From Schizochytrium sp. TIO01 (Eukaryota; Protista; Bigyra: Labyrinthulomycetes): a stretch of 64,000 nt of DNA. Both the position numbers and the translations under genes were made by a program. This document shows, one piece after another, positions 3,201 through 63,999 of this stretch. The stretch is taken from contig SMSO01000033.1 of assembly GCA_004764695.1 (NCBI GenBank), forward strand, positions 62,001-126,000, read 5' to 3'. How positions within the stretch are numbered: the first letter of the stretch is position 1; each line of letters opens with the position of its first letter. The notes beneath the pieces are model-generated. The model saw only the letters and a program-made list of their open reading frames with translations, was not told the DNA's origin and searched no databases.

Positions 3201-5263
3201 GCTTAGAAAAGACTTTGGTTGTGTAGGAACAAGACTTCCTTCGTGTGTCACTGAGTCTTTTCGCCCCAGTGAGGACACATTGCCCGCCTGTTCGTTCGAA
3301 TGTACTCGTCGGTCCACCCGCCGAAGTTGAGGATGATGGGATTTCAGCCATCTCCACAAGCCTTGGAAAGAAAACTCGTACAATCGAGGGAGCATCTCGA
3401 GGTGAGTGTCGTGCACTCCGGGAGATTCCGCAATCCACCCTCAGGCATGCATACACGAAGGCAGAAGACCCTAGTTGTCATCGCCCCGCCCTTGTGTCCG
3501 CCTTGTGTCTTTCTTTATCTGTCCCTCTTTCACTGCCTTACCAAAATAGAGGAAGAAAAAGAAGAAATGGGAAAGTAAACGGCCTAGTGACACTATATGA
3601 TTCTTATAGCACCACCTGAGTTTAGTTCCAAGTTTATTCTCTCTCTATATATATATGTTTTAAAGTTTATATCAAAGAAAAAGAAAAAGAAAAGATGAAG
3701 GACTAAAAATATACACATAAAAAATAGAGGTATGAACGAGTGTGGAGAATGGATTATATAGGTCTCACAGATCTAAACATCAGCGATGTGCTCGAAATGC
3801 AAGATACAGCGCTGCGATTGGCGCGCTTCTGACTCTGCACGCTTTGCTCACTTTGCTCGCATTGCTGGCTTGCCTGCAGCACGTAGTTGTTTCTTGCTTC
3901 ACACATTCACACACACCTGATCTGCCTCCTTCCAGGTTACCTGGGTACCTCCGATAAATGAGATGAAAAAAACAGAATACCCCGGAGAGAAGCGGCCAAA
4001 CAGACGCCTTGCTTAATAGTTGATTGCTATGCGTGTGTTGGCTATCGCTTTCTCTCCGACACCTTGACGCAACTTGATGGGCTACACTTAGTTGCTCTTC
4101 TTCACCGTCACTGTCAAGTTCTTTTGTGTTTCCAGTCTGTGTTTTACTTATATCATTCAAGCTATAAATTGCCTTGTATTTAAATTAATTATTTCTTTCT
4201 TCGTTTCACTCTTTGCAGTGAGCCGCCTACTGTAGCCTATTGTTAATTATGGTATACACCTAACACTCATCGTCAGTGGTGCTCTGAGAGGAATGTATTT
4301 ATCTATGTATTCATTCCTAGTGCTGCTGATGTCATTCATGGGATACCCTCGAAGCGATCGTGCTGCCAACACAACCATCTCAGCCCATGCTGGCCTGGCT
4401 TCGCTCAAAGAGCAGAGCACCTATTCTGCTTCAGGTCACTTTCGTTGACTGAGACTTGGGTTTTTCAACTTCCTTTACTTTCTTTTGAAAAGCCAAAAAA
4501 ACCAATCGCGATAACACTGCAAAAAACCAATGATTTCACAACGAAAACCTGTTTTTGATTGTTGATCTGCCTATCTTATACCGCGGTTACCTACTGCAGT
4601 GCATTAAAGCAAACAGACGTCTCGAAGAAGTTCACTGCCCGCCCGGAGTGAGTGTGTATTTATTTCTGTTTGTTTGCTTATTTTTTATTTTTTTAATAAA
4701 ATAAAAGTTGTTCATTAGTTCATGTGTGCAAACGTCTCATGAAGGCGGCCATTTCTTTACTGCTCAAGCTGGTGTAGGCTCAGCAGTTGAACGATTTCGA
4801 AGTCTCAGAGCTTTGATTGAAGATGACGCATGTACTAGCGAAAAGAAAAATCCCCCTTCAAGTGATCTAGCAGCAGCTTTAGAAGATATCAAATCAGTCG
4901 GAGCGTTTGTATCTTTCAAAGCGCTTTGCACTCCGACTTCCTTGTGGCAGCAGAAGTACACTTAAAGAAACAATGAGAATAACAAGAAAAGACTCATAAG
5001 AATATACTTTTTAAATAAAAAGAAAGATTGAAAAAGAAAGATTGAAAAAGAAAGATAAAATCCGGAAGATTGAGGCATGGCACTACGCAGAAGCAAACGC
5101 AGAACGGGAAGGCAGCCCGGTCAGTCAATCAGCGCTTCTGTCCTCGCCCCGCCTTCATTGGCATTCGCGGTACTCCCGCGTCTCTGATCCATCCCTATAT
5201 TTGCCTCTTCTATCTCCTTCTCCGACACCAGCACCTGCTAGCTAGTTTCCTGCTGCCATCATC

Positions 5264-7594
5264 ATGGCCGAGGAGAGCGGCTCCAAGAGCGTGCGTGAGC
5301 TCATGCAGCAGTTCAAGGGGGGTGGCGGCGTGACAACGCCTGTGGACGAAGCCGTCAAAGGACGCTCTCGTTCTCGCCCATCTCCGCATAAGTTATCTTC
5401 TTCCGCCTCGGTGTCCTCCCTCGGATCCTCTATCAGCGCCACCCCCTCCACCACCTCCTCGTCACCTGCTCCCGTGCTCAGCTACCAGGATGAGATGCTC
5501 CGCAAGCAGCGGCTCGCTCGTGATGCCGAGAGGCGTCAGGCCCAGGAACACCGGAAGCAAACTGCAGGCTTCAAGGGATCCTCGAGCCTGGGCTTGCTAG
5601 ACCAAAGCGCCGCCATCTCTCGGCAACAGGCAGAGGCAGACCGCAAGGCCAAGGCACACGCTTCCGCCTCCGCAGCCAACTTTAAAGGCGCGGGATCCGT
5701 TTCTCTTTTAGATGGTGGTGTCGCCATGCAGCGCGCTACCGCTGACGCAGACCGGAAGGCAAAGGAAGAAGCCGCCCGCGCTGCTGGTCAGTACAAGGGC
5801 CAGCAATCCAAATTTCTCGAGGAGGTCTCCGCACTTGAGCGCCGTCGCAAGGAAGCTGATGCCAAGGCAAAGGCAGACCTAGAGGAACTCAGAGCACAGT
5901 GCAAGGGTGCGGGAGGCTCCTCACTCATGGAACAGTCTGCCCTGCTCGAGCGTCAGCGCAAGGAGGCTGACGCAAAAGCCAAGGAGCAGCTTGAGGAGAT
6001 CCGTAAGGGCTACAAGGGCGCCTCGAGCGTCTCCCTCATGGACCAGGCTGTCATGCTTGACAGGCAGCGCAAAGAGGCTGACGCAAAGGCCAAGGCACAG
6101 ATTGAGGAGCTCAGGGCACAATACAAGGGATCCGGAGAGGTTGGACTCATGGACCAGGCAGCGGTGCTTGAGAAGCAGAGAAAAGAGGCCGACGCAAAGG
6201 CCAAGGCACAGATCGAGGAGCTCAGAAAGGGCTACAAGGGTGTCTCAGGCGTCTCTCTTATGGACCAGGCTGTCATGCTTGACAGGCAGCGCAAAGAGGC
6301 TGACGCAAAGGCCAAGGCACAGATTGAGGAGCTCAGGGCACAATACAAGGGATCTGGAGAGGTTGGACTCATGGACCAGGCAGCAGTGCTTGAGAAGCAG
6401 AGGAAAGAAGCCGATGCAAAGGCCCGCCAGGAGATCGATTCGCTCAAGGCACAGTATAAGGGAGCGGGAACTGTGAGCTTGATGGACCAAGCGGCGTATG
6501 AAGACCGCAAAAACCGCGATGCAGAGAGACAGGCGAAGCAGAGTGCTGCATCTGCTGCAGCTTCGATTCGCAGCTCAGGATCGAAGATGTCGGACGAGTC
6601 TAGGCGCCTTGGAAGAGAGAACGACGACAATCACCGTCGAGCTCAGGCGGAAGCGTCCAAGGCACAGCACAGCTACCGTGGCATCTCGCTCAGTGCAGGT
6701 GAGGACGAAATGGGATCCTTGTGTGACCGCAGCTCAGCATGCGGTTCTGACCTTGCTCAACGCGACGCTATGGTCGAGAGTCAAATGGGCGAGCTCCCAG
6801 TTCACTTGGAAGAGGATGAGAATGATGGCGAGTTCGCAGCTCCCGTACCCAAGAACCAGGACGAGGAGGATGACGATGAGCTCGCCGGACCTCCCGATAA
6901 CGATGTCTACGAAGATGACGATGAGGTTATGGCACCCGCAAGCATTGTCGCCGAGGCTGAAAGCGGTGACGCCGACAACGACGAAACTCAACAGGATGTT
7001 GCCCCCCCGAATGAGGAGGGAGAGGTCACTACTCCTGTTAAGGCTGAAACAGCTCAAGAAGAAGAGATTTCTCAATCTGAAGAGGCTGTTGCTACTGATA
7101 ATGTGGAGAGCGAGGAGCAGGTAGAAGACAGTCAAGAAGAGAAGGCCCCTGCAGAGCAAGTTGAGGAGGTCACTACCTCTACCGAGGTTGTCGAGACCGA
7201 GGCTCCAGAGACTGTTGAGACTGAGACTGCTGTGGCAGAGGCTCCAGAGGCAGTCAAGACCGAGACTGCTGCAGCAGAGGCGTCAGAGGCCGTTGAGACC
7301 GAGACTGCTGCAGCAGAGGCGTCAGAGGCCGTTGAGACCGAGACTGCTGCAGCAGAGGGGCAAACCTCCTCTTCTGAGACCTCAATCAAGGCCCCCGAAG
7401 AGGCCGCAGAGACCAAGGAGTCCAGTGAACTTGAAGATACTGAAGATAAACAAAGCGATGAGGATCTCGTCCCTGACCTCGTGGACCCCAACTCAAACAA
7501 TGACAAACTCTCTTCCCGTGGATCTTTTGACACAAGTGAGGGTGCACCTCTTGCTCATGCGGAGGCCTCTTCCACTGGTGCACCTCTGGCTTAA
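5264..7594 (+). CDS. 776-aa protein with ~11 tandem 37-aa helical repeats ending in (Y/F)KG and an acidic disordered tail
   Basis: Long GC-rich ORF. Repeat consensus is roughly GxxxVSLMDQAxxLxRQRKEADAKAKAQIEELRxxYK. The C-terminus is E/D/T/A-rich. Confidence 0.9.
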   Translation: MAEESGSKSVRELMQQFKGGGGVTTPVDEAVKGRSRSRPSPHKLSSSASVSSLGSSISATPSTTSSSPAPVLSYQDEMLRKQRLARDAERRQAQEHRKQTAGFKGSSSLGLLDQSAAISRQQAEADRKAKAHASASAANFKGAGSVSLLDGGVAMQRATADADRKAKEEAARAAGQYKGQQSKFLEEVSALERRRKEADAKAKADLEELRAQCKGAGGSSLMEQSALLERQRKEADAKAKEQLEEIRKGYKGASSVSLMDQAVMLDRQRKEADAKAKAQIEELRAQYKGSGEVGLMDQAAVLEKQRKEADAKAKAQIEELRKGYKGVSGVSLMDQAVMLDRQRKEADAKAKAQIEELRAQYKGSGEVGLMDQAAVLEKQRKEADAKARQEIDSLKAQYKGAGTVSLMDQAAYEDRKNRDAERQAKQSAASAAASIRSSGSKMSDESRRLGRENDDNHRRAQAEASKAQHSYRGISLSAGEDEMGSLCDRSSACGSDLAQRDAMVESQMGELPVHLEEDENDGEFAAPVPKNQDEEDDDELAGPPDNDVYEDDDEVMAPASIVAEAESGDADNDETQQDVAPPNEEGEVTTPVKAETAQEEEISQSEEAVATDNVESEEQVEDSQEEKAPAEQVEEVTTSTEVVETEAPETVETETAVAEAPEAVKTETAAAEASEAVETETAAAEASEAVETETAAAEGQTSSSETSIKAPEEAAETKESSELEDTEDKQSDEDLVPDLVDPNSNNDKLSSRGSFDTSEGAPLAHAEASSTGAPLA
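6005..6448 (+). repeat. Near-identical 222-bp tandem duplication (2 x 111-bp repeat units) inside the CDS
   Basis: AAGGGCTACAAGGG starts at 6005 and again at 6227, and the following sequence is nearly identical in both copies. Confidence 0.85.
7193..7357 (+). repeat. 39-bp coding minisatellite (ETETAAAEASEAV-like, ~4 copies)
   Basis: Repeated GAGACCGAGACTGCTGCAGCAGAGGCGTCAGAGGCCGTT and variants. Confidence 0.8.
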
Positions 7595-8509
7595 TCATCA
7601 AGACCAAATTTTGCTTGGTGCACATATGCACTCTCAAACATCTGTGACTAATTCAAAATAATAATGCTCTACGTAGTAATATCTCAAAATCTATTCCAGC
7701 ACTAGCCCCTTTCGTCTTCTGCATGGTGTCGTTCTTCCTCTTTGTACGAGTAAAATGTCTTGGTGTCTCTGTGCATGCTTTAATTTGAGTAAATGATCAA
7801 AGACTTGATATATATTTTCTTGGCTTTAGAAAGAAGCAGGCATATCTGTCTGGTTTCAAAATGTTCTATCTCTGCTTGAAACCAATAGAATATCTTAAGC
7901 CCACTTTGTAATAGACCAGAACATGAGATGGGGAATCAAAATTAAATAACTAGCTTTCATGAACTCAAGTGTACCTGCCCACTTCACCGTCATCTCAACA
8001 TTCTTGCAGATTAATGAATCACAATGACTACGAGCAAACTGGTTGTTGTTTGGAAAAAGAAAGCAACTGGCAGACACTGGGGTCAAACTTCAAGGGCATC
8101 AAACCTGTGAGCACTCATCCCAGCTCATTCAGCCTCAATTGTTCAAATTCTTCGGAAAGCAGAACTCTCCGAGCCTCGCTAGAATCACCAAGTATAATAT
8201 ATAATTAGATATGCCAAAGAGCTAGTTTTCTGAGACCTTCTACGAGAAGCAAACGATCTCAAGCCACGGTTACAGACATTATGAAAAGCTTATACCTCAA
8301 GGAGCGGAAGCTTGCCCCTTTCGCTGCACCTACGAAAACGTTAGAATTAATATAACCTCAAAATGGCGGTGACAATATTCCATACAGGAAAGTGATATGT
8401 TATGATTATTTAGGTCTTTGTTAAGGAGCGGAGACTAGGTAAGAAACTGGAATGGCAGAAACCACCAAGTTCCAAACACTACATGTGAAGCAAACCTTCA
8501 AAATTCAAA

Positions 8510-8810
8510 TGATCAAAGAACTTCAACCAGAAGTTTGACGCCTCAGCAAGTGCCCCGCGGATGCTTCCCAGGAGGCAATCGCATATATGCAAGTGGCAAC
8601 ACTGAAGGCATCTATGGCTGCTATTTTTTTCTTGCCGGCGCGGAGCAGCACTGACAAAAGAATTATCTATGCCAGAGTGTCCTCTGGTTAGAGAATTTCA
8701 AAAGCCAGATTGGTGACCTCCAGCGTGACTATCCAGACGCCCCCGCCGTCTACAAAGGCATCGGTGGAGGGGTCGACTTCAAAGGGTAGGGCTTGGGCCT
8801 ACTGGACTAC
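8510..8810 (+). pseudogene. tnpA: IS607 TnpA (MerR-like HTH plus serine recombinase), N-terminal remnant
   Basis: KFDASASAPR...PGGNRIY is HTH/wing-like. Then IIYARVSS (8662; catalytic Ser at 8680), followed after a frameshift by ENFKSQIGDLQRDYPDAPAVYKGIGGGVDFKG*GLGLLDY. This matches the IS607 TnpA pattern YARVSS..Q..DL.RQ...L...YP....I.DIGSG.NFKR.GL..LLD. Confidence 0.85.
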
Positions 8811-9175
8811 TGAGATTTATCGCAAGCTGACACGTTGGCTCTGTCAAAGTTACGGTGTTATCATCCTTTTTGCCCAACTTTGAAACCTCAACAAGTCAAC
8901 AAGATGGACCAAAATCAAGACAGCTCCAATGAAATGTCGTTCTGTGGCTTCCGACAAGCGCTCATTCACAAGCCCGAGTCTTTTACCTGCGAGTGATGTA
9001 AACCGGTTATTTGTAAAGAGAATTGCACTTCGAAGGCATGCCATGAATGTGGTACTATCCACGACAAGCTCGAATCATCCAAGATTTTCAAATGACCCCC
9101 AAAAATTGCAAACACGCAGTCGATATTGATATCCACACCACTAGAGGCATCCTTTTGCGCTACCTATCCAAGTAA
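8811..9175 (+). pseudogene. tnpB: Fanzor2/TnpB C-terminal remnant (RuvC-II, Zn ribbon, RuvC-III)
   Basis: EIYRKLTRWLCQSYGVII/LPNFETS...FCGFRQALIHK...VICKENCTSKACHECGTIHDKLESSKIFK*P/CKHAVDIDIHTTRGILLRYLSK*, with frameshifts and stops. Confidence 0.85.
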
Positions 9176-9304
9176 GGACATCATTTAAGAATCATCTTCG
9201 CGTCGCGGGATCGTCTTTATAAACATCCGCGATCGGGCCATAGCTCCATTCTGTCACCACGGGAAAATGCAAGTTTTGCATATATTACAGGTTAAACTCT
9301 AAGT
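9176..9304 (+). ncRNA. Candidate Fanzor omega-RNA scaffold / transposon right end (copy 1)
   Basis: Lies directly 3' of the Fanzor remnant. Stem 9203-9211/9225-9232, a GGGC-CATA-GCTC hairpin, and a CTGT...ATGCAA-GTT-TTGCAT...ACAG stem. All are conserved in copy 2. Confidence 0.5.
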
Positions 9305-10668
9305 TTTACCCTTTTCATCGTCATCAAAGCCATTCTAGCGTTTCACATAGCCAGCATTTACTAGACTTTGCACCCCGCTAGCATTCCCTATATTCCCCGA
9401 GGTTGTTCCTCTTTTTTTAATTGCGTCTCCTCACAGATTCAGGTTTTTCCCAGTTTGAGCCAAATCCGCCCTGCCTCAAGTAGAATCGGGCAATACCCGT
9501 ATTGCATGATGGCTGCGGCTCTGTTGAAACACCATAGGTAAGTGACATAACGCACAAGAGTCGAGTTCGGCCTGAAAATTCACATTCTGACGCAGCAACA
9601 ACTCGATCGCGCTGCGCTGCCCGAGCATAAACAATGATCTAGGGCCGTCTTAGTGTTTTCAATAAGCACACCTAACTAACAGTGTTCATCTTTATAAAAC
9701 TAGGAAATACAGAGCTCAAGAAACGAAGGACGAGTTATAGAAAACGTAATTTTGCGCCATTATGCCAGCTCTAATCCTACTAACTATACACCCCAATAGG
9801 TACTAGCACCTCTGACTTTGGATCTCTCGCACACGCTCGCATTATCAGGTGCTTTCCTTCTTCCTTTCCATAGACACTTGAATAGGACTATCCTCTGCTT
9901 TTGTTTTACAGAGACTTCCAGCGACCCTCGAGTTGCTACTAGTTCCGTATTTAGCATCCAGGGTAGCAGTGCGGCGAGTGCGCGAGGGAACTTTAAGCAT
10001 AAAATTGGGTGCTTCTCCAATCGCACCACTTGAATATCAGTGCCTAGGTGATTATCGTAATGTGCTTGAGCTCTCTTCTTGACGTCTGTAAGCTATGCCA
10101 TGGCCGTGTCTAGCATTCAAAAGGTAGCGGGCTGGGAGGGTTATACGAGTGAGGGAAAGGGAATTATGAACAAAATAACCCTACTACCAGTCCTATTGGT
10201 GAGGGTAGTAGTGGTAGTAGTACCTAGTGTTTCTCCTTATCTGGGAAAGAAAAAAGCAAAGTAAAGAGGGCAATCGAATAAATAAACAGTCTGTTAACTA
10301 GCCCACTCGCTGTTTGCGGAGACCACGCTGCGCAGAGGCGCGTGCGTGGAGGCGGTTCCTGCGACTACGGGAGAGTGGCACTTGCAGCTAAGACTCCAGC
10401 CTCGTAGCTGAACACACTATCAGCGTATTTGCCTCGCATAGCGCCAGGCAGTGACTGAGTGTAGTATCATCGTCCTGTTTCCTCCTTGCGTACTTTCAAG
10501 CTCACCTGTTGCACACACGTCTATACACATACGCAAACTAAGACCTGAGCTGTACTACACAGGTCACGCTTCTGTGGATCAAACTCGTGATCTTAACTTT
10601 TGTCTTGAGGATCTCCTACATCAAAGAAACCTTTCTTCAGCTGCGTCAAGAATAGCCAACGGAACAAG

Positions 10669-10772
10669 GTAAGCTTTGGGCTTGTTCTGTAAAGTCTTCA
10701 CTTATCGTTTCTTCCGCACGTCATCTAACACGGAGACAACTCGATCTTATAAAACATTGTGTTCGTGCATAG
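10669..10772 (+). other. Probable spliceosomal intron in the 5' UTR of the ankyrin-DHHC gene
   Basis: AAG|GTAAGC donor at 10669, CTAAC branch point at 10725, TAG acceptor ending 10772, 46 nt before the ATG. Confidence 0.55.
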
Positions 10773-10818
10773 CGTGCTGGTATTATTAGTCTAGTTTAAT
10801 ACAACCTGCGAAGGAATC

Positions 10819-13191
10819 ATGGCGCAGTCCGATATCCATTACTCAAACTCCATGCATGAGGAGCAGGACACTGGCAACCCGGATCCGATCAAGATGTTCA
10901 AGAGTCTTATGAGCAACGGAAGGAACCAGGGCCATAAAAGTGGTGGCCGTGTCGATCCTAGCGATAATGACGAAGAAAATACCTACGATGATGGCACGGA
11001 AATGGATGACTTGGAGCTTGGCAAATCTGGAGCCAAGTCTTCCTCCTCAGCACAACAACCTCTACCAACACTCGCTGAAATGGGTCTCAAACCGAACAAC
11101 ACCCTTCGCGTTTTGCAAGAGCGCTCACAGAATATGACTCCTGAGGAGCGCGAAGCAGCAGAGAAGCAGGCTGCGCAAATGCAAGAGCTCTTGAATGCCA
11201 AGCTTGCTAAAATGCCCGCAGATCAACGTGCCCAGCTTCAGGCACGCCAAAAGGCCATGACTCAGGCTGTCATGGCGCAGCTACATGAGGATACTGTGAA
11301 TAAGGCAATTGCAAACGGTGTGCAACCGAAGCTGATGCCTGCTGCGGCTGGTGCAGTTGCGCAAAATGTTGCGCAGCCGCAAGAGACCCCTGAACAAACT
11401 CGTGATCGCGAGATTCTCTTTGCCATTCGTAGCGGCAACATTGAATCTTTAAAGGAGCTCCTGGCCAAGTATAACATGAGCGTCAATGGAAGCGTCAAGG
11501 CACCAAATGATGCTGAAGCACACCCTCTTCTGCATTGGGCTTCGCTCAATGACCAAAAGGAGGTGCTCGAGTACCTCGTAAGCGTCTCTGTGGATCTGGA
11601 TCAGCGTAATCCGCGTGGCGAAGTTGCTCTGCATTGGGCCTGCTTGAATGGAAACTTACGATCGGTCCATTTACTGATTGACGCAGGATGCGACCGGATG
11701 GCTTCTGATGCTCGAGGATACTCAGCGATGCACCACGCGGCGCAATTTGGGCGTTCTATCGTGCTGGCATGCTTGTTGCGTCGTGGCTTGAACGTAGACA
11801 TTCGCGACAACAATGGGCGAACTCCTCTGCATTGGGCAGCATACAAGGGCGAAGATCGCTGTGCACAATGGCTGCTGGAGCATGGCGCAGATGTGTCTGC
11901 TCAGGACTTTGAGCGTTGCTTGCCTATTCACTGGGCAGCTTTGCAAGGCCTCACCTCAATGAGTCATGTTCTTCTCAAGTACGGCGCAATCTCACACCTC
12001 ACTATGAAAGATCGTACTGGTGGTACCCCGGCGGCGCTAGCACGTGAGAAACAGGCAAGGTATGAGCCCACTTCGCATCAACACAAGACCTTCTTGCGCG
12101 TGGGTGACTACCTCGAAGCATGTGAGAAGAAGGGCAAAGATATTCGCCAAAAACCTGTCCAGCTGCGTCACCCTACCTGGTATGCTTGGCCTGTCCTTGC
12201 CACTATTGGGTTTTGGCAATACTGGACTGTTGTTATGGAAGATACAATTTATTATCCGATTCTCACCCTGGTCTTTTGGACCTCATACTGGGGCTGTTGG
12301 TTGGCATGGACCATGTTGCAGATCAAAAATCCTGGAACCTATGTGCTGCGGGACGAAAAATCCATGAAGGCGTTTCGCGCCAAGTACCAAGCGTCTTCCT
12401 CTTCTTCTTCATCAGGTGCTGGAAAGGGGCAAGATAATGTCCTCATCGCTGTTTTGGACGATGATGGCTGCGCATGCCCAATCAATCCTGCACAGCGCAA
12501 TGCGGAAAAGTACCGCGCCATGTATCTAGAGGTGCTGGACAAGGGCTTGCTTGTGCCGGTGTGCGCAACTTGTGAAATTGTTAAACCCATTCGTTCAAAG
12601 CACGATAAATTCACAGATGTTTGCATCGCACGATTCGATCACTTTTGCCCATTTATGGGCGTGGCAGTCGGCCAAAACAATTATTTGGAATTCTTTATGA
12701 CTATGGTTGCTGCGTTTGTTTGTATTTGGAGCTGGCTTTACATGACAATTCTCTACACGTCTGCATTGAATCCAGAGCTACCATTTTATGTTAACTTTTG
12801 GAGTGTGGTCTACTGGGAGATCTTTGTTTGGGTTGCCTACCTTCCGCTTGGTATCTATGCCACGCTTATGATGGGCCAGCATGCGATGTTTATCAAGCGT
12901 AACATTACTACAAATGAGGTCATGAACAGGTATCGCTATCAGTACCTGGCAAACAAACAGAACCCGTTCAATCGTGGTGCGTTGGGTAACATTTTGGAGT
13001 TTTTGGGTATTATGGAGACTCGCGAGATGGACGTTCGTGGTTTCTACAACATTGAGTTTGAAGGTCGCTCGCCCCAGGTCGAGGACAATAATCAGCGCCT
13101 ACGAGCTGGCCTTGCGCCGCGACCACCTCCTTCCAAGGGTAGTTGCTGCTCTCATTCGCACTCGCACGGTGGTCATGGTCACAGCCATTAA
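10819..13191 (+). CDS. AKR1: Ankyrin-repeat DHHC palmitoyltransferase (Akr1/ZDHHC17/TIP1 type)
   Basis: About 6 ankyrin repeats (LLHWASLND, ALHWACLNG, TPLHWAAYKG), TM helices, the Cys-rich domain CATCEIVKPIRSKH...RFDHFCPF...VGQNNY, and TTNE and NPFNRG motifs. Confidence 0.93.
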   Translation: MAQSDIHYSNSMHEEQDTGNPDPIKMFKSLMSNGRNQGHKSGGRVDPSDNDEENTYDDGTEMDDLELGKSGAKSSSSAQQPLPTLAEMGLKPNNTLRVLQERSQNMTPEEREAAEKQAAQMQELLNAKLAKMPADQRAQLQARQKAMTQAVMAQLHEDTVNKAIANGVQPKLMPAAAGAVAQNVAQPQETPEQTRDREILFAIRSGNIESLKELLAKYNMSVNGSVKAPNDAEAHPLLHWASLNDQKEVLEYLVSVSVDLDQRNPRGEVALHWACLNGNLRSVHLLIDAGCDRMASDARGYSAMHHAAQFGRSIVLACLLRRGLNVDIRDNNGRTPLHWAAYKGEDRCAQWLLEHGADVSAQDFERCLPIHWAALQGLTSMSHVLLKYGAISHLTMKDRTGGTPAALAREKQARYEPTSHQHKTFLRVGDYLEACEKKGKDIRQKPVQLRHPTWYAWPVLATIGFWQYWTVVMEDTIYYPILTLVFWTSYWGCWLAWTMLQIKNPGTYVLRDEKSMKAFRAKYQASSSSSSSGAGKGQDNVLIAVLDDDGCACPINPAQRNAEKYRAMYLEVLDKGLLVPVCATCEIVKPIRSKHDKFTDVCIARFDHFCPFMGVAVGQNNYLEFFMTMVAAFVCIWSWLYMTILYTSALNPELPFYVNFWSVVYWEIFVWVAYLPLGIYATLMMGQHAMFIKRNITTNEVMNRYRYQYLANKQNPFNRGALGNILEFLGIMETREMDVRGFYNIEFEGRSPQVEDNNQRLRAGLAPRPPPSKGSCCSHSHSHGGHGHSH

Positions 13192-14489
13192 TTCGCATCC
13201 ACAACAATGCGCCCCGAACATGTTTTAATGACAAATTGATTTTTCACCCAACATTTATGATTCTCGAGCTTCTGTTGCTGAAAACAGGGCGACGCCTAAA
13301 ATAATTTCGTCTACTGAAGAAACTCTTGAGAGTTGACCCTTTCTCCGCTTCATGAGAATACAGCTTTACTGATAATTCATTCCTGGTTCCTCCTTACCAA
13401 CTCAACACGTCGCTTATACCGTAGTAAAAATACCGTATCTCAGTGTCTTGTACCCTTTGAGTTTAGCTAGATTTGTAATCAACAGATGATACTATCAAAT
13501 AAACAACCAATGTTACAGAATTTAAGTTTAAAAAAAAACATCCAAGATAAAGTTTCGCTTATTTTCTTGTCAAGCAATGGGGGCGTATATGGGGGCGTAT
13601 GGCAGCTACAACCATAATGCACCAAACCTATCACGAATGATAAAGTGAAACGATATATTATATTGCAGAGGAAGTATTAGCACTGACGGCTGACTTTATA
13701 GGACACTTTGAAGGACATAAGCAAGGCAATGTAGAAGAAACCTTTAGCGAGTAAAATGTTAAGAATTTCCGTACTATTGTTTCACCACATGAGAAAATAA
13801 AGGCACATGTTACCCCAGTTGTCTGCCATGACGTAGTTCCAGCACTTTTTTATATGGCATGCCTTTTGATTCAACTCTAAAAATGACCTCGGCAAAAACT
13901 AATACTGATACAACTGTGACAGTGAATGATGCCTATGTTTCGAAAATAGACTCTTTGAAGATCTTTCAGTTGATTCAATACGAATCTCTGATTTATAACC
14001 AATTCTCCCTCGAATTGTAACTCAAATATCATCTGTTTCAAAACTCAAAACTCTCAAAACATTTTGACAAATACCAAGAAGAAGCTGAATCAATGGAATT
14101 TGTCAGAAGGAGCTATACAGGAAGCGACGAGAAAAGTTTTGCTCTGAAGTATACTGTCAAGAATTTATATGTTATTAGAAATGAATACTTCAAAAATAGA
14201 CAATACTACTAAAACTTTGCCACAAACCAACCCGAGTGCTGCGTCACAGCAGTCTTGCATTATGGCGGTGTTTGTTTCTGAATGATTTCATCAAGGTATA
14301 TTTCCATCAAAATCCGTTCAATTTACTTCCAAACAATGACTTTCAAACTAAGCTTCAGTTTGCAGGATTTTATTATTTTTTAAAAAATGAGGATGCAAAA
14401 GTTTTATCTATAGTATTATTAAGGAGCCATAAGCTACTTTGCAATACTACCTTGAAATGTTATCAGTTATTTTGTTCACCGATCGATTA

Positions 14490-14985
14490 TTACACAATCT
14501 CGTTGCTCTCTATATGCGTCTCTGTATTGTTGGTCCTTGACAAAGTCCCGAAATCTCTTGCTGAGTCAACGCCCAATGCATCCGCGAGCAGGTCAAAGTC
14601 TTCTTCGCGGAGGGTTTCGCTGCAAGACTTCTTACTGCGCTCCAGGTCGATAAACTTCAACGATATTGCGCAATACTACATCTCCATGGATGAAGCTGGG
14701 CTTATGGATCTTTTCAAGAACCAAAGCACTTCCAGTACGATTCCTCAAGTCTACCGTACTCTTCTAATTCCTGCGTCGATAGATCGCACAGTGATTTACT
14801 ACACTGCTCTGTCGCAGAAAATACCAGGTCTAGTTTTGCGTCAAGACCGCGAACTGTTACCCGCGGTACTACGTCACCCTGCAGCGCGTGCATACTTTAC
14901 CCTCATGCCCAAGTGAATATGGAGAACCATGCAGAGCGTAAGTCGTCTTGACGAAGCTAGAGACACCGTTGATCACGATGTCCGG
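14490..14985 (-). pseudogene. Frameshifted atypical protein-kinase-like fragment
   Basis: SFVK...LGHEGKV/LQGDVVPRV.../VLEKIHKPSFIHGDVVLRNIV/KFIDLERS...*. HGD is at 14688-14680, FID at 14654-14646, stop at 14490. At least 3 frameshifts. Confidence 0.7.
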
Positions 14986-14999
14986 ATATCCAACGACAT

Positions 15000-15300
15000 C
15001 AAAGCCTTCATAGATACATAGAGATACCATTGAATACTGTGCAATACAAATCTTCAGTCTCATTTGGTCCTCAATGAGGATTACACTCGCTGGTTTGAGC
15101 ATAGGGTAAATCTTCGATGTTTTCTTATTAAACATAAGGTTGTATAGATTCCCATAGGAATATTTCGTTGCGACTTCAGTGCCTTGAGGGATGGGGCAAA
15201 GGCGATTCGCTCACAATAGACTAGCCTTTTGGTTGAGCTATCATAAAGAGCTACGCCAACGGTTATGATTCCAATATCAATGCTAAATAAAGACTAGGTT
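15000..15300 (-). pseudogene. Fragment of a RuvC-fold Holliday junction resolvase (poxvirus A22 / large-DNA-virus type)
   Basis: LFSIDIGIITVGVALYD (from 15290) and, after a frameshift, VILIEDQM (15084-15061). These are RuvC-I D and RuvC-II E motifs about 69 codons apart. The C-terminal part is missing. Confidence 0.6.
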
Positions 15301-15463
15301 GCTTCTTTCGTTGCCTATAATTTTCAATCGGAATCTGTTTATCTTGAATTCGATATATAAGTACAAATGTGAGGGCATTATCCAGGAGGGGCAATAAAGA
15401 GTTTGATTAATTGTTTTGAAGATGATAGTCTTGTTCGTTGTCTTGCTTTCAAAGCTAGACCAA

Positions 15464-15621
15464 ATTATCAACGCCAGAGTGGCCTCCACCAAGCAAAAGA
15501 GAATTTCGAACGCCAGATTCGTGATCTCCAGCGCACCTGTCTAGACATCCCGGCAGTTTACAAAGACATCGGTAGAGTGGTCAACTTCAAAAGGCCGGGC
15601 TTGCGCGCCCTGGTGGACTAC
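15464..15621 (+). pseudogene. tnpA: IS607 TnpA serine-recombinase remnant (catalytic Ser to Ala)
   Basis: ARVAS at 15473-15487, plus RQI..LQ and DIG...NFKRPGLRALVD. Confidence 0.85.
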
Positions 15622-15960
15622 CGAAATTCACCGCAAGCCTCCGTAAAAACTTCCGTGTAATCCTTTTGCCTAATTTTGAGACCTCCCAAATGGTGATTAA
15701 TAACAAGGCAGTTCGAGTGATATGTCGTTGGGGTCACTTGAGCTTCTGGCAAGCGCTCTTTCACAAAGCCGAGCCTTTTTCCCGCCAGTGGTGAAAACTT
15801 GTAATTTGCCGAGATGCCTACACTTGAAAAACATGCAATGAATGCGGTACTATCCGCGACAAGCTCGGAACATCCCAAGGTTTTCAAATATCCGAAATGC
15901 GAATACGTAGCCGATCGTGATTTCCACGCCGCGGAAGGTACGCTTTCGCGCCACCAATCC
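15622..15960 (+). pseudogene. tnpB: Fanzor2/TnpB C-terminal remnant
   Basis: VILLPNFETSQM; WGH..F.Q.L.HKA; AYT*KTCNECG zinc ribbon; FK(Y)PKC; RuvC-III DRD at 15913-15921. Confidence 0.88.
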
Positions 15961-16094
15961 ACCCAAGAACATGAGCAAGAATTATCTCATGAGTTGCGGG
16001 TTAGTCTTTATACAAACCGGCGATTGGGCCTTGCCCTGCTCTGTCACCAAAGGAATTTGCAAATTTTGCATATTATACAGGTTGATTCCAAAGT
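15961..16094 (+). ncRNA. Candidate Fanzor omega-RNA scaffold / transposon right end (copy 2)
   Basis: Stem 15992-16002/16015-16025, a GGGC-CTT-GCCC hairpin, and CTGT...TGCAA-ATT-TTGCA...ACAG. Homologous to 9176-9304. Confidence 0.5.
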
Positions 16095-16558
16095 GTAGTA
16101 GGCCCCAACACAGTTGGAAAAGTCCGCAACTGGCAACAACAGGGGCGGGCTCAAAAGTAAAAGAGTCTTCCCAAAAGGGTATGTATATGTCGTGTCGGTT
16201 GAGATCTGGAGGTTCCTCTATGGTGGATTGGTATGCATTTACTCAGTCACCGGGAAACAAGATCACGCAAGCAAAGAGAGAAAAGGCAGTTTACTACAGT
16301 TCAATTACAGAGGAGTATGATTTTATGGGTAAGATACACAGTTTATTCAGAGGGATGAGGTCATTGATATGATCGACACACGTAGTCTATAGTAGAAGTA
16401 AGGGCAGTAGTGTACACATGCAGCACTTCGCTGCGAGGTGAGATCGATCATACATATATTTTCCATCATTGGAAGTCTTGTTTCGTCACATGATACGACT
16501 GATTTAACCAGCCAGAAGTCATCACACACATACACATGCTTGAGAAGCTCACACGTAT

Positions 16559-17878
16559 TTACAGGCAAATGGGCGTAGGCTGGGCTTCAAGCTCCGCAAG
16601 AAGGTTGTGCCTGCCGAGTCTCTTGGCGGTGAGAACAGCCGCCTGGAATGTAGCAACTTGTTTCTCAGGAGCAGCGCGCAGAAATTGTTGACGAAGGCGC
16701 ATTGCGGTTTCCAAGTCACATCCAGCAACTGGATGAAGCTGAATGAGAATTTCCACCATTTCCTCCGGGGTCCGGTTGGCATTGAGGAATTCCTCTTCGT
16801 TGCCAGTCAGAATCTCACTAGCTACGTTCTGAGACATCTGCTGCTGCTGCTGCTGCTGATGGTGATTATAGTGATTTTGTTGCTGTTGTTGTACAAATTC
16901 AAATGAGGTCTTTTTGCCAAAGACGAGGTCTACACGCTCGCGGCTGCCAGTGGAAGGAGAGGCGAGAGGTGTTTCAGGGCCCTGAGGTTGGACAAGCGAT
17001 GGATCGTTTGAGGATGAGAACGAGCTCACCTTGCTCTCCTCCATGGAGGACGACGCTTTTCGCGGAAGCATGACCGTTTTGGTGAACTGATGATGTTGCT
17101 GCTGGTAGAGATGATGATTGGGCATGACCAAATTGTTGTGTTGCGGTACTGGCGATCTCCTTTTACATCTACTACTTTCTTCAGCAGGGTTAAAACCCGG
17201 AGGCATCATTTGTTGCGGCACGCCATGCGGCGAGGGTTTGCTGTAATTCTGCGCGGCGTAGTACTGTTGTTGTTGTTGATGATGTTGGTGAGGGTGGCTT
17301 TGCATGTGATAGGGATGTTGCTGGTGCTGTGCGGGGTACGCGTGGGGTGCATAGCGAGCATACTGTTGTTGATGCATGTGGTAGGTGTGCTGTTGGTGGT
17401 AATAGTCAGGCCGCCTTTCCTCGTAAACGGGTGCAGCAGGGTTACGCTGGTCAGGTACATTATTTGACACATATTGCGGCTGGTACGGCGAGTGTTGGGG
17501 TTGCATTTCTGGGCGCATGTGAGAAGAAGAAGATGCTGATGAAGATGCCGATGATGTGGATGCTGAAGATGCAGTTGGGGCCATAACGAGGACCTGCTGT
17601 GGAGCATACTGCACATGATTTGGCGAGACGGGCGCCGGGCGCTGGGGTCTCGTATAGGTGCGTTCATGCGGTGGCACCATGGTGATTTCATGTTGCTGCT
17701 GGGTCTGCTGTTCGGATGTCATCTCGTAATAATACACTGGCCCATTGCTGCAATCCGATACCTCGGTCTCCATGTCTACGTCCTCATTGTGGTGGTCTTC
17801 CTCGATATCAACAAACTGGCCCCAGCCGTCGTCTTCGCCTCTCGAGGCTGTCGTCATCCACTCGCTGAAGCAAATCAT
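16559..17878 (-). CDS. Q/H/P/S-rich low-complexity protein with an N-terminal WGQFVD motif and a short helical C-terminal domain
   Basis: Long ORF. The first ATG is at 17878 (MICFSEW...DDGWGQFVDIEED); the track start at 18025 is not ATG. Poly-Q/H core; C-terminus NRTPEEMVEILIQLHP...LLAELE. Confidence 0.8.
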   Translation of the reverse strand: MICFSEWMTTASRGEDDGWGQFVDIEEDHHNEDVDMETEVSDCSNGPVYYYEMTSEQQTQQQHEITMVPPHERTYTRPQRPAPVSPNHVQYAPQQVLVMAPTASSASTSSASSSASSSSHMRPEMQPQHSPYQPQYVSNNVPDQRNPAAPVYEERRPDYYHQQHTYHMHQQQYARYAPHAYPAQHQQHPYHMQSHPHQHHQQQQQYYAAQNYSKPSPHGVPQQMMPPGFNPAEESSRCKRRSPVPQHNNLVMPNHHLYQQQHHQFTKTVMLPRKASSSMEESKVSSFSSSNDPSLVQPQGPETPLASPSTGSRERVDLVFGKKTSFEFVQQQQQNHYNHHQQQQQQQMSQNVASEILTGNEEEFLNANRTPEEMVEILIQLHPVAGCDLETAMRLRQQFLRAAPEKQVATFQAAVLTAKRLGRHNLLAELEAQPTPICL

Positions 17879-20168
17879 CCTCGAGAGACGCTCCGTTTCG
17901 GATTTGCTTGCTCGCCCTCTAGATTTGGTTTCTTTTTGCTTATTTGCCCGCTCTCGGCACTGCGATGAGCGTCTCTTGCTTTCGGTTTTGTTGTTGTCTT
18001 CTTGTTTCTTGAAGAAGAGCCGCAATCGATCGAAAGCTTTCTTTTAAGTTTTGCTTTTGTTTGTTTGTTTCCAAATGAGGAGCACTTTAGTTCGTGCCTT
18101 TGGGGTCCACCTGGCGGGTAGGCGGTGAGAGGGTGTCCACCTGCCTTCAGGGTCTGCCAGCTGCCGCCGCGAGCCGAGTTCTCCGGCGCGACGGCTGCTC
18201 CTCGACTTTGTCTTCACCACAACCTCCGCTGCGTCCACGTTAATCGCAGCAAGTAGTTCTCCGTTTCTAGTTTGGTGGCGCCTCATTTTCATTTCGCTCG
18301 CTTCGTCTTTCTCTTTTTTCCACCTCTCCTACTGTTCCTACGCAATAGGCTACCACTATTAAACTATTTTATTCATTTATTCATTGAATATTGTTTTTAA
18401 ATTAAACAACTCTGTAGCGTCTTTCTCTGTTCTTCACCGCATCGTGTGCATTTACAATTTTAAAAAAAAAAATAAAATAAAATTAAAATTAATAAAAAGT
18501 ACGAACTTTTGATTTGACTTGTTTCTTCACATTTCTCATTATATTTATTCTTAATTAAAAATATTTTTTAAAAAAATTAGAATACATAGTGCTACTATTG
18601 ATATGTATGCAGTTTCTCTATTCAAAACGAGGGACTACTACCAGTTATATATGCGTTTCTACTCACTAAGGATTTTTCGAGACCTTCCTTCGCGTGCCGC
18701 TGAGGTGCGCTAGCGGATTCCTAAGGGTTCCTTAGAGGCTGTCATGATGCCGCATTCACGAGACGGTCTGTGGACTCTGCCAGCTTCATCATCACCATAG
18801 TTCAAGACTCCCAAATAAATGCACGTCGCCGCACGAGTCCAAGACTTGGTCCTCTCCAGGGCCGTCCAGTGCCTACGACGTCTCTTCGCGAGCCTCGTTC
18901 GAGTCCCACTGTGCGCATCACTCGAGTTGTCCATCGATGGACTCATCATCATCTTGATCTAAAACTTGATGCTCTAAGACCCAAGAACCCGGAAATCGAT
19001 CAATCGATCGATCAGTCAATGAATCAATCGCCAAAGCAGCCTCACTTACCGTTTACTCTAGCCACAGACTAGCCAGAATCCGGGAGCAAAACGAGGTGAC
19101 GAGCAAACCTCCGAGTTGACATTGTACCCGCATAGTGGGCGCTCCACGGAGCGCTTCTTCAGACTTTTCATTTTCCATCATACGATTGAAGAAAACAAAA
19201 GCCGGGAAAGGAACTAATATATAAATTCTTTCCATCGAAAGAACTACGTGGTGATGCTCTCCAAGCCAGGTATTTTTAGTGTAAACGGCGTACGTACTGT
19301 GCCTGTCTAGCTAGCGCGGCACTTCAAAGTGGAGTGGCTGTGAAGGAGAAGAAGAGGCCCTCGTTCTTCTCCCTATTCTCCCCTTTCAATTCTCCCCTTT
19401 CAATTCTCCTTTTCATTTCTTTTCTTACTTTTCAACTAAAACATTTATACTTTATAACGAAAATATAAACCAGAATGAACGAGAAAGATGATAAAGCTGC
19501 AATTAAATTAAAAAAAAACAAAGCTCCGCCGAGTTCTCCCCTCTCTCTGTCCTGTCTCTGCCTTCGAACAATTTAAAGTTCTCTGCTCGTGCCGCTGCTA
19601 CCATCGCCTATCTGTTTCCTACGCCTCCGCCTTTCCTACCCCTTCCTATCCAACTGCTACCTACGAAGAAAGAACGCAAAAAAGAAAGAAAGAAAGAAAG
19701 AAAGAAAGAGAGAAGGCTTCCTTCTCTCCTAGCCACGGCTAGGCACTACTACCGGCCTAGGAGCAAGTGATGTGAATCCCTACGACCAGAAAGCAGATCT
19801 GCCGCCACAGGAGGACCATCCGCCGTCATAACGCGCTCAGGAGTTCGAATGAAGACTTCGCATGAAGACTTCGCATGGAGACTTCGAAGACACCACCGGC
19901 GGCTCCACTCTGCTGAGGTCTGGCGCGTTGATAAGGCCGCAGAGGCCTGCTTGGGCAGCGCTGGTCTGCGAGCAACAGAATCCTCCTCTTCCTCCGTATC
20001 AAACTCAGCATTTCTTTCTTCTGCAGCACATTCGATCGCGCTAACAGTCACTATTTCTATGTACTCTAAGTGTGTCTGCGCACATCTTTGTTTATCCGTG
20101 GACATTCTCATTCATACATAGAATAGATACATACTGAGAATAGATATAAAGAGAATAGATACATACAC

Positions 20169-62757: not shown

Positions 62758-63999
62758 CTAAGACTCGCAGCACCCTGACTCAACAGGTATGACCATGCCA
62801 TCTTTTACGCTTCTACTATCATTTTCCAACGTAGGCGTGTTGCTAGTCGTGCTTCTACTATCACTTTCCAATGTAGGCGTGTTGCCAGACGTGCTTCCAT
62901 TATCACTTTCAAATGTAGCCGTGTTGCTACTATTATTTTCAGGTGTAATCTGGACGCTTTCAAGCCCGTTACTTGTTTCGAAATTGCCCAGGTCTCCGAA
63001 CTGAGATTTTATCCATTCTCGGATACATTGGAGTTTCTCATACTCTCCTTCTTGTTCATACTCATGTAGGAGTGGTTTGAGCATATTCATCGTACACTCT
63101 TTTTTCTTGTTATCGTTTACATCAAGAATGTCTTCTAGTGACACTAGAAAATTATCAAGAGCATTTTTTTTCTTTGTCTCCTGGTAGCTTTTCCAAAGCT
63201 TCTTGCATAAAATTCCCAAAATATAGAATACCCCGGTGAAAACCATTTTGTTTTCGGTGAGAAGCTTTTTCCATTCATCAGGTAGACGCATGACTACGCT
63301 ATCCCAAAAGAATTCTTTCGTGAAAGGCTTCTCACCACGAAATATTTCCCATATATCAAAACAAAACTGAGCATTTTCTAGGGCAAAGAAAAAAACTGTT
63401 TTTGCACCCTCGCGTAACCAGGTTATACTACATGGAACATAATCGATAGTCTCGAGATCGTCCAGAGCTTCCTCCATAAGATCCATGCAGAAACGAATGT
63501 AGTCCCATTCTACAGGATAATCTGGAGCCTCTGGAAGTGGATCCTTGAACTTTTCTCTAGCATTGCAAAAAAATGACCTGTTCATGAAACTCAAAAGCCA
63601 GTCGACCCGGAAACAAACTGCTATATCATGGGTCGAAAATTGTCCCTCACTAGGTTCTACGGAGTTGACTTTACCAATCAAACAGTAAAGAACTCCTCTC
63701 TCGTCAAGAATGGGTCGACCTGAGTGTCCTAACTGAATTTGAAAGGGAGTTTCAATTTGGGCAATCGGAGAGTTCATACCTTGAGAATTCGTAGATGATC
63801 TTTTCCTCTTCAAGGACATGTCCCGTCTGTAAGATGGAGCCTTGCTACGTTCGATATCACGCCATGGAACATTAAAGGATTGACCAAGCGTTGGATCGTC
63901 GTCGCTAACCCTTTTTGCAATCGAAGCTTTAAACATCACGCGCAGCTTAGGTACATCCTTCTTGAAGAAATGGACATAGTAAATTGAGAAGTCAAATTC
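62758..63999 (-). CDS. 3' part of an uncharacterised AT-rich gene (frame open to the window end) with a C-terminal 14-aa repeat
   Basis: Stop-free from 63999 (EFDFSIYYVHFFKKDVPKLRVMFKAS...) to the stop at 62758. Three 42-bp NTPTLESDSRSTTS-like units at ~62810-62930. Confidence 0.75.
   Translation of the reverse strand, partial: EFDFSIYYVHFFKKDVPKLRVMFKASIAKRVSDDDPTLGQSFNVPWRDIERSKAPSYRRDMSLKRKRSSTNSQGMNSPIAQIETPFQIQLGHSGRPILDERGVLYCLIGKVNSVEPSEGQFSTHDIAVCFRVDWLLSFMNRSFFCNAREKFKDPLPEAPDYPVEWDYIRFCMDLMEEALDDLETIDYVPCSITWLREGAKTVFFFALENAQFCFDIWEIFRGEKPFTKEFFWDSVVMRLPDEWKKLLTENKMVFTGVFYILGILCKKLWKSYQETKKKNALDNFLVSLEDILDVNDNKKKECTMNMLKPLLHEYEQEGEYEKLQCIREWIKSQFGDLGNFETSNGLESVQITPENNSSNTATFESDNGSTSGNTPTLESDSRSTTSNTPTLENDSRSVKDGMVIPVESGCCES

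Follow-up and report, generated by a model that had tools for sequence, protein, structure and literature searches.

A dead, internally deleted IS607-Fanzor2 element

Amid ordinary eukaryotic genes (DHHC-ankyrin, Myb, RRM), the window (i.e. the whole stretch of 64,000 nucleotides analysed here) carries a decayed and dead IS607-Fanzor2 transposon with an internal deletion (copy 1, Table 1), and a second copy of it (copy 2) lies further downstream. The initial annotation had described copy 1 as a TnpA followed by a Fanzor C-terminus, visible only by translation across frameshifts. Six-frame translation recovered all of the motifs quoted in support, on the plus strand and distributed over three frames (IIYARVSS at ~8662-8685, GIGGGVDFK at 8757-8783, RKLTRWLCQSY at 8821-8853, LPNFETS at ~8872-8892 and GILLR at ~9146-9160, with the stop codon at 9173-9175), and the arrangement of an IS607 TnpA and a Fanzor2 C-terminus was upheld by tblastn with relatives, by TnpA and Fanzor profiles and by alignment to the TnpA of the intact element L079. 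The extent originally proposed (8510-9304) was accurate on the right, with an edge at ~9305, but the element begins ~115 bases further left, at ~8393, and the internal loss of ~1,190 bases had gone unstated.

Table 1. Coordinates of the element and its parts in the window.
Feature	Position	Strand	Basis
Whole element, copy 1, internally deleted IS607-Fanzor2 derivative, ~913 bases	8393-9305	+	X6 contig depth, contig departures
Left end, boundary tentative within a few bases	8393-8482	+	Start points of other copies
tnpA remnant with a MerR-like HTH and the N-terminal half of the serine recombinase domain, YARVSS	8483-8808	+	
Fanzor2 N-terminal 77 codons, in another frame than the overlapped tnpA	8587-8808	+	P0292 residues 1-77
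Deletion junction, Fanzor codon 77 (Thr) fused in frame to codon 475 (Thr)	8806-8811	+	
Fanzor2 C-terminus (last 124 codons): RuvC-II Pro, shifted Glu, zinc finger, RuvC-III Asp, stop	8809-9175	+	
Right end, place of the omega-RNA scaffold	9176-9305	+	End motif like intact relatives
Copy 2, same junction and right end as copy 1, without the left 270 bases	15463-16095	+	

The gene for a serine recombinase TnpA is present upstream of the nuclease gene and overlaps it, though truncated and frameshifted and with modest scores in copy 1. Its remnant has three frameshifts and two stops and lacks the C-terminal half. In an alignment with L079 TnpA, a 245-residue protein that passes the NCBIfam IS607 transposase profile, it covers residues 6-116 (score 82, versus 61 for the best of 10 control stretches). 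The Fanzor2 part is identical to the full-length relative P0292 at 36 of 72 positions on the N-terminal side (P0292 residues 1-77, Met on Met) and at 67 of 114 on the C-terminal side (residues 475-598), where at least three frameshifts have accumulated. The shifted Glu is encoded at 9018-9020, six residues ahead of the first zinc Cys (9039). The C4 zinc finger is recognizable but damaged, its third Cys having become TGA at 9093, and in the RuvC-III RD the Asp is kept and the Arg changed, both motifs being intact in P0292. The 397 missing codons (1,191 bases) comprise the HTH, WED/REC, the RuvC-I DPG, the bridge helix and the second half of tnpA. Because the DPG, found at residues 400-402 of P0292, is deleted from both window copies, we filed the element as a deletion derivative of IS607-Fanzor2 and not as a working member. 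To judge from its sequence, copy 1 is unable to cut or move by itself, since ~1,190 bases including the RuvC-I DPG are lost, and neither enzyme would have been workable even before the later mutations.

In the public DNA run X6, single-copy contigs (records 6325-8908 and 9143-14476) link both halves of the element to the host genes beside it. MMETSP also contains the DHHC-ankyrin protein of the neighbouring gene, and Mucochytrium quahogii, a thraustochytrid, is the only organism named among the nine closest full-length homologs looked up (51% identity). The host is a marine protist and likely a thraustochytrid.

Similarity searches place the remnant beyond chance

A tblastn search of the window with P0292 returned copy 1 at E 6e-23 and copy 2 at E 1e-27, and the same search of the reversed window returned nothing at E<=0.1, which puts the identity of copy 1 beyond chance. 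The cyanophage IS607 element L001 likewise matched both copies by tblastn (E 1e-6 and 7e-15, respectively), its TnpA failing to detect the remnant. A profile built from 95 related TnpA proteins matched copy 1 at E 5e-4 and copy 2 at E 2e-7, one built from 20 Fanzor proteins at E 1e-14 and 2e-30, and at E <0.1 these two profiles match nothing else in the window. The resolvase and TnpB/Fanzor profile matches expected at the outset were thus obtained with profiles made from relatives but not with Pfam on the raw frames, where no Resolvase match was found and Cas12f1-like_TNB stayed under its cut-off (E 0.0027). NCBIfam gave nothing for the one frame of copy 1 tested, a word-indexed protein search with a 77-residue read-through found nothing, and PDB searches with two short pieces met Fanzor2/Cas12f only at E 0.07-0.9, among chance matches. 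In published data the family is not hidden, as a C-terminal half nearly identical to that of P0292 appears as row Fanzor50_0852 in Data S1 of PMC10530073.

Element ends and the omega-RNA region

On the left, AAGTG at 8390-8394 mirrors the right end (such a 5-mer lies that near by chance in ~3% of places), and other copies start to match at 8393, 8400 and 8405. On the right, similarity to L079, L099 and L103, whose right ends close in AAGCG, is seen over the last 35 bases; this likeness rests on motif comparison, because a local DNA scoring of the right end with every locus does not single out L079. Both junctions of copy 1 lie at AAGTG-like text, with a tentative left boundary, and the ends of relatives read AAGCG or AGGCG, not GG. 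No 7-mer is shared or inverted between the two ends of copy 1. The fold of the right end is not significant (z -1.3 and -1.4), its last hairpin and terminal 35 bases resembling those of relatives. Rfam had no match in the right end, promoter and terminator scans gave nothing above chance, and right-end DNA patterns had 0 matches in metagenome contigs and 0 in viral contigs.

A GG core is stated as strict for IS607 in PMC13565253. In contrast to that statement, many related IS607 families have CG, AG or AC as the last two letters of their right end, among them those of L004, L079, L094-L097, L099, L103, L131, L152, L180 and others.

A family of dispersed copies with one junction

Copy 2 is 70% identical to copy 1 over 651 columns (E 4e-77) and shows the same join, at 15617-15622, between flanks that differ from those of copy 1. 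Its RuvC-II site has kept the Pro, but an Asp stands in place of the shifted Glu. Differences between the two copies are spread evenly over the codon positions (36/28/41 in 102 codons, p 0.29), as in neutral decay. A third copy that is collinear across the junction was found in run X19 (record 4, 8690-8844, 32 other letters), and one X6 contig has only 29 letters between its TnpA part and its ILLP part.

The left part of the element has no match in 13201-15470, the sequence adjoining copy 2. A second repeat family at 13421-15460 abuts copy 2 there and replaces its left part; it has no Pfam match in six frames and no other copy in the window, and its X6 depth is 2-8x that of single-copy sequence. 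A contig of run X17, guessed to be RNA (depth 740), extends over 14547-17000 and spans copy 2 together with the 3' part of a minus-strand gene (16559-18043), so that copy 2 may be antisense to this gene, within a long 3' untranslated region.

At least half of the words in 8300-9500 occur in 20 of the 24 public runs listed (9 studies, one run possibly being the source itself), from which the insertion looks old and fixed. None of the runs with these words is recorded as RNA. Five of the 24 were compared by way of contigs, which stem from sister strains; X6 and X9 are among the runs, X14, X17 and X19 being cited as well. No empty insertion site was seen in the public runs compared. In X6, 223 contigs fall on 8150-9500, 151 of which are less than 90% alike, and one variant letter at 8538 recurs in up to 29 contigs. 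The summed X6 depth rises from 354 outside the element to 3,555 in the bin 8380-8425 and is back at 358 after 9345, with sharp edges at both ends (bins 8380-8425 and 9300-9345), and the same rise over the element is seen in X9, summed contig depth being distinct from copy number. Seven X6 contigs depart from the reference behind 9304 into unlike sequence (agreement 0.52). From the numbers of contigs, the copies amount to tens; they are dispersed, sharing a right end but not their flanks, and summed depth was not used for this estimate.

P0292 is a full-length relative with all catalytic residues

Profile searching of 1.84 billion representatives yielded 332 matches, and a second search with the closest fragments gave P0292, a 601-residue Fanzor2 open reading frame from an MMETSP transcriptome that is marked complete. 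Among the matches listed at 350-1,000 residues, 69 of 71 contain the DPG. P0292 is the closest protein to both copies (357 bits, versus 237 for the next), matches them from the first Met to the C-terminus and keeps D400, P495, E547, the four Cys and D584, i.e. all three catalytic residues are present. The suggestion of the initial annotation that an intact parent may survive elsewhere was borne out by this protein. Its structural model (pLDDT 84.8) has a mimivirus Fanzor2 as best structural match (E 2e-19); a single-sequence fold (pLDDT 37) was not usable.

We placed the copies in a tree of 38 rows, drawn from a de-duplicated set of 176 and containing no Fanzor1 row, with bootstraps that are not settled and deeper forks that are open. 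Here, both copies group with P0010 and P0292 in a single clade (100/98), and the end branch of P0292 measures 0.025, versus 0.55 and 0.49 for the copies, which argues that the full-length gene was under selection while the copies decayed.

Several observations bear on the presence of such a gene in this lineage. In both X6 and X19, loose ends of contigs can be read by eye as P0292 residues 69-78, and they extend only two letters beyond the junction. Deep contigs of X19, another run guessed to be RNA, have the P0292 residue at 8 of the 8 residue-changing sites listed (of the silent sites, three agree and one does not), and the X19 contigs with P0292 letters reach a depth of ~7,000-7,500, versus 27-63 for the copy 1 locus; in the DNA run X6, two of the P0292-type letters occur in only 3 contigs. 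On the strength of the X6 and X19 contig ends and the deep X19 contigs, a P0292-type gene likely lives in this lineage. By eye, Fanzor50_0852 differs at about five positions from the last ~285 residues of P0292, and it contains the DPG; as this row belongs to the census of GenBank assemblies in PMC10530073, an undeleted copy exists in assembled DNA. We treat P0292 as a candidate working parent.

Further intact candidates of the clade are found on metagenome contigs (L079 1055-3135, L077, L083, L085, L088, L089, L091 and L100), which carry a TnpA and a long open Fanzor2 reading frame (603-676 residues from stop to stop) with the DPG. The sister clade includes P0295, a 621-residue Fanzor2 that its source names transposase A625R of Durusdinium trenchii.

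Placement among Fanzor and IS607 systems

The best solved relative of the family profile is ApmFz2 (PDB 9B0L, E 2e-36; E 4e-18 with P0292), whereas Fanzor1 structures gave nothing at E<=1 by profile and E 6e-5 or worse by fold comparison with the P0292 model. Judged by these profile and model comparisons, the element groups with Fanzor2, not with Fanzor1 or canonical TnpB, and assignment to Fanzor1 was ruled out. Fanzor1 is a divergent clade tied to DDE/Helitron-type transposons. The near-identical census row is labelled family5, which presumably stands for Fanzor2. ApmFz2 (Acanthamoeba polyphaga mimivirus, L79) has the same DPG, shifted Glu, zinc finger and RD as the family, but it is only ~18% identical, viral and intact, with a Lys where the family's clade has the RuvC-II Pro. 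Fanzor2*, the form captured by TIR transposons, is described as having no TnpA but terminal inverted repeats and target duplications (10.1101/2023.08.09.552727); given the TnpA remnant and the lack of inverted repeats, this assignment was ruled out as well.

A Pro at the old RuvC-II site and a substitute Glu ahead of the zinc ribbon, as defined in PMC10530073 and 10.1101/2023.08.09.552727, had been read at the outset as marks of a eukaryotic Fanzor. Both are indeed present in copy 1, but the pair is not diagnostic of eukaryotic Fanzor2 alone, because cyanobacterial pro-Fanzors share them (e.g. the cyanophage TnpB of L001). The pro-Fanzor IS607 of cyanophage OR578706 (L001) also has the same gene overlap and the DPG; however, pro-Fanzors of this type form their own clade of 3-4 rows in both trees, and their identity over the matched stretch is 42-46%, as against 59-64% for P0292.

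IS607 elements with Fanzor2 have been described in eukaryotes and their viruses (PMC3627910, 10.1101/2023.08.09.552727, PMC13565253). As in the IS607EU elements of PMC3627910, PMC3673617 and PMC13565253, a serine recombinase gene overlaps the Fanzor2 gene, no terminal inverted repeats are found, and the host is nuclear and of stramenopile type. Unlike in those accounts of IS607EU, a deletion derivative occurs here at tens of dispersed copies with one junction, and the ends appear to close in YG (AAGCG/AAGTG), not GG. Data S1 of PMC10530073 holds Fanzor50_0852 and Fanzor50_1691, the latter a decayed copy like P0010, as bare sequence rows that describe no N-terminal half, TnpA, ends or copy family; Data S1 has no organism names, and a blank there is uninformative. 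The family is thus already known, and this locus itself is a wreck of a kind that is common. Literature tying Fanzor to thraustochytrids was not found by a search that had Repbase, subscription papers and bioRxiv supplements outside its scope; the sole paper with both the words Fanzor and Aurantiochytrium names Aurantiochytrium only in a reference, and the tables of PMC10711439, in which control names are present, have no thraustochytrid name and no P0292 motif.

Origin and spread of the copies

We consider it probable that copy 1 is one of many dispersed nuclear copies of a dead, internally deleted IS607-Fanzor2 in a protist, likely a thraustochytrid, and that these copies were spread by the TnpA of a P0292-like parent. 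A single deletion between two short look-alike stretches at the Thr codons would have produced a master that kept both ends; as the junction lies in microhomology, the event could have recurred. The TnpA of the full-length parent would then have excised the master in trans as a double-stranded circle and reinserted it, and the copies would have decayed without selection. Bacterial IS607 TnpA is reported to excise a gene-less mini-element as a double-stranded circle and to reinsert it (10.1101/2023.11.20.567912). Intact right ends would in addition yield an omega-RNA with their own flank as guide, by which the parent's Fanzor2 might cut the empty site and restore the copy. Gene-less IS200/605 elements are described to supply omega-RNAs that are used in trans (PMC10055086), and the PATE-like IS200/IS605 elements of that report are likewise non-autonomous, retain the two ends together with the omega-RNA region and rely on proteins supplied in trans, but they are bacterial, use a Y1 transposase and were shown to do so experimentally, where the present scheme is deduced. 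Contigs from two runs of two studies, both guessed to be RNA, cover copy 1 over 8428-9316 and 8381-9268 and stop near its ends, which is a weak and strandless hint of an element-length transcript; that the flanks are not covered in such runs was not taken as proof, X14 also being without the neighbouring gene.

The very short branch of P0292 beside decayed copies would also fit a domesticated Fanzor2, that is, one fixed, highly transcribed and immobile locus under selection, with the copies as fossils or as a guide-RNA bank. The depth of the X19 contigs and their P0292-type residues at every listed site favour this scenario, the near end-to-end contigs of copy 1 hint at it weakly, and domesticated IS607 open reading frames have been proposed in PMC3673617. 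However, selection would also act on an autonomous lineage that is still mobile, the letters in common are mostly family consensus and not specific to P0292, expression is poorly reflected by contig depth, and the RNA status of the runs is a guess, so that we regard domestication as improbable. That the in-frame junction itself made a short Fanzor-derived protein under selection, e.g. a dominant inhibitor, is hardly credible: both copies do keep the Fanzor frame at the junction, but microhomology at the Thr codons explains the frame, both copies have stops and frameshifts, and, lacking a third-position excess between them at the p value given above, selection on a fused mini-protein was rejected.

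It is quite improbable, too, that the copies multiplied in a giant virus or mirusvirus, or arose by segmental duplication, with no IS607 transposition in the nucleus. Fanzor2 is enriched in viruses (PMC10530073), thraustochytrids are reported to carry persistent large viruses, a Feldmannia virus Fanzor2 (L023, matched by eye to PMC10711439 Table S3) falls into the same loose clade (85/92), and earlier eukaryotic IS607 copies were often segmental duplicates (PMC3673617). Yet ordinary host genes surround the element, similarity does not extend past its ends and the flanks differ, and L023 is a long branch that is unresolved in a second tree. Nor did we find a viral source, one of the two carriers that the initial annotation had considered: IMG/VR has no close relative (best 38% over long matches among 73 loci; none for P0010 and one at 28% for P0292), and transposase, IS607, TnpB and Fanzor are absent from the main texts of the thraustochytrid virus papers checked. 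The lineage itself may nonetheless have entered by way of a virus long ago.

Spread of the copies by a parental TnpA in the nucleus bears on an older question. Gilbert and Cordaux (PMC3673617) collected 80 eukaryotic IS607 sequences, 1-22 per genome and many of them segmental duplicates, and in section 11 were unable to conclude that IS607 had ever transposed within a eukaryotic genome. What such nuclear transposition would be expected to leave behind is a dispersed family of this sort, in which the junction and the ends are shared and the flanks are not alike. The remnant also leads to a full-length, apparently intact 601-residue Fanzor2 in a family with a right-end motif unlike the GG type, and P0292, a new compact nuclease candidate, offers a direct test of nuclear IS607 transposition and of the natural role of Fanzor2. 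A bolder version, in which a complete IS607-Fanzor2 is alive in a thraustochytrid nucleus, the serine recombinase of a full-length, strongly transcribed parent of P0292 type has carried both the parent and the deleted form to tens of sites, the core is not GG and Fanzor2 takes its guides from the copies' right ends, is in our view rather unlikely; if true, a bacterial insertion sequence would be transposing naturally in eukaryotic chromosomes, and its host would be amenable to culture and transformation.

Other features of the window

Upstream of the element, the gene at 5246-7594 contains five 111-base and four 39-base tandem coding repeats and belongs to no clear Pfam family. At the far end, an open frame of at least 413 residues on the minus strand (62758-63999), with no credible Pfam match, runs off the window.
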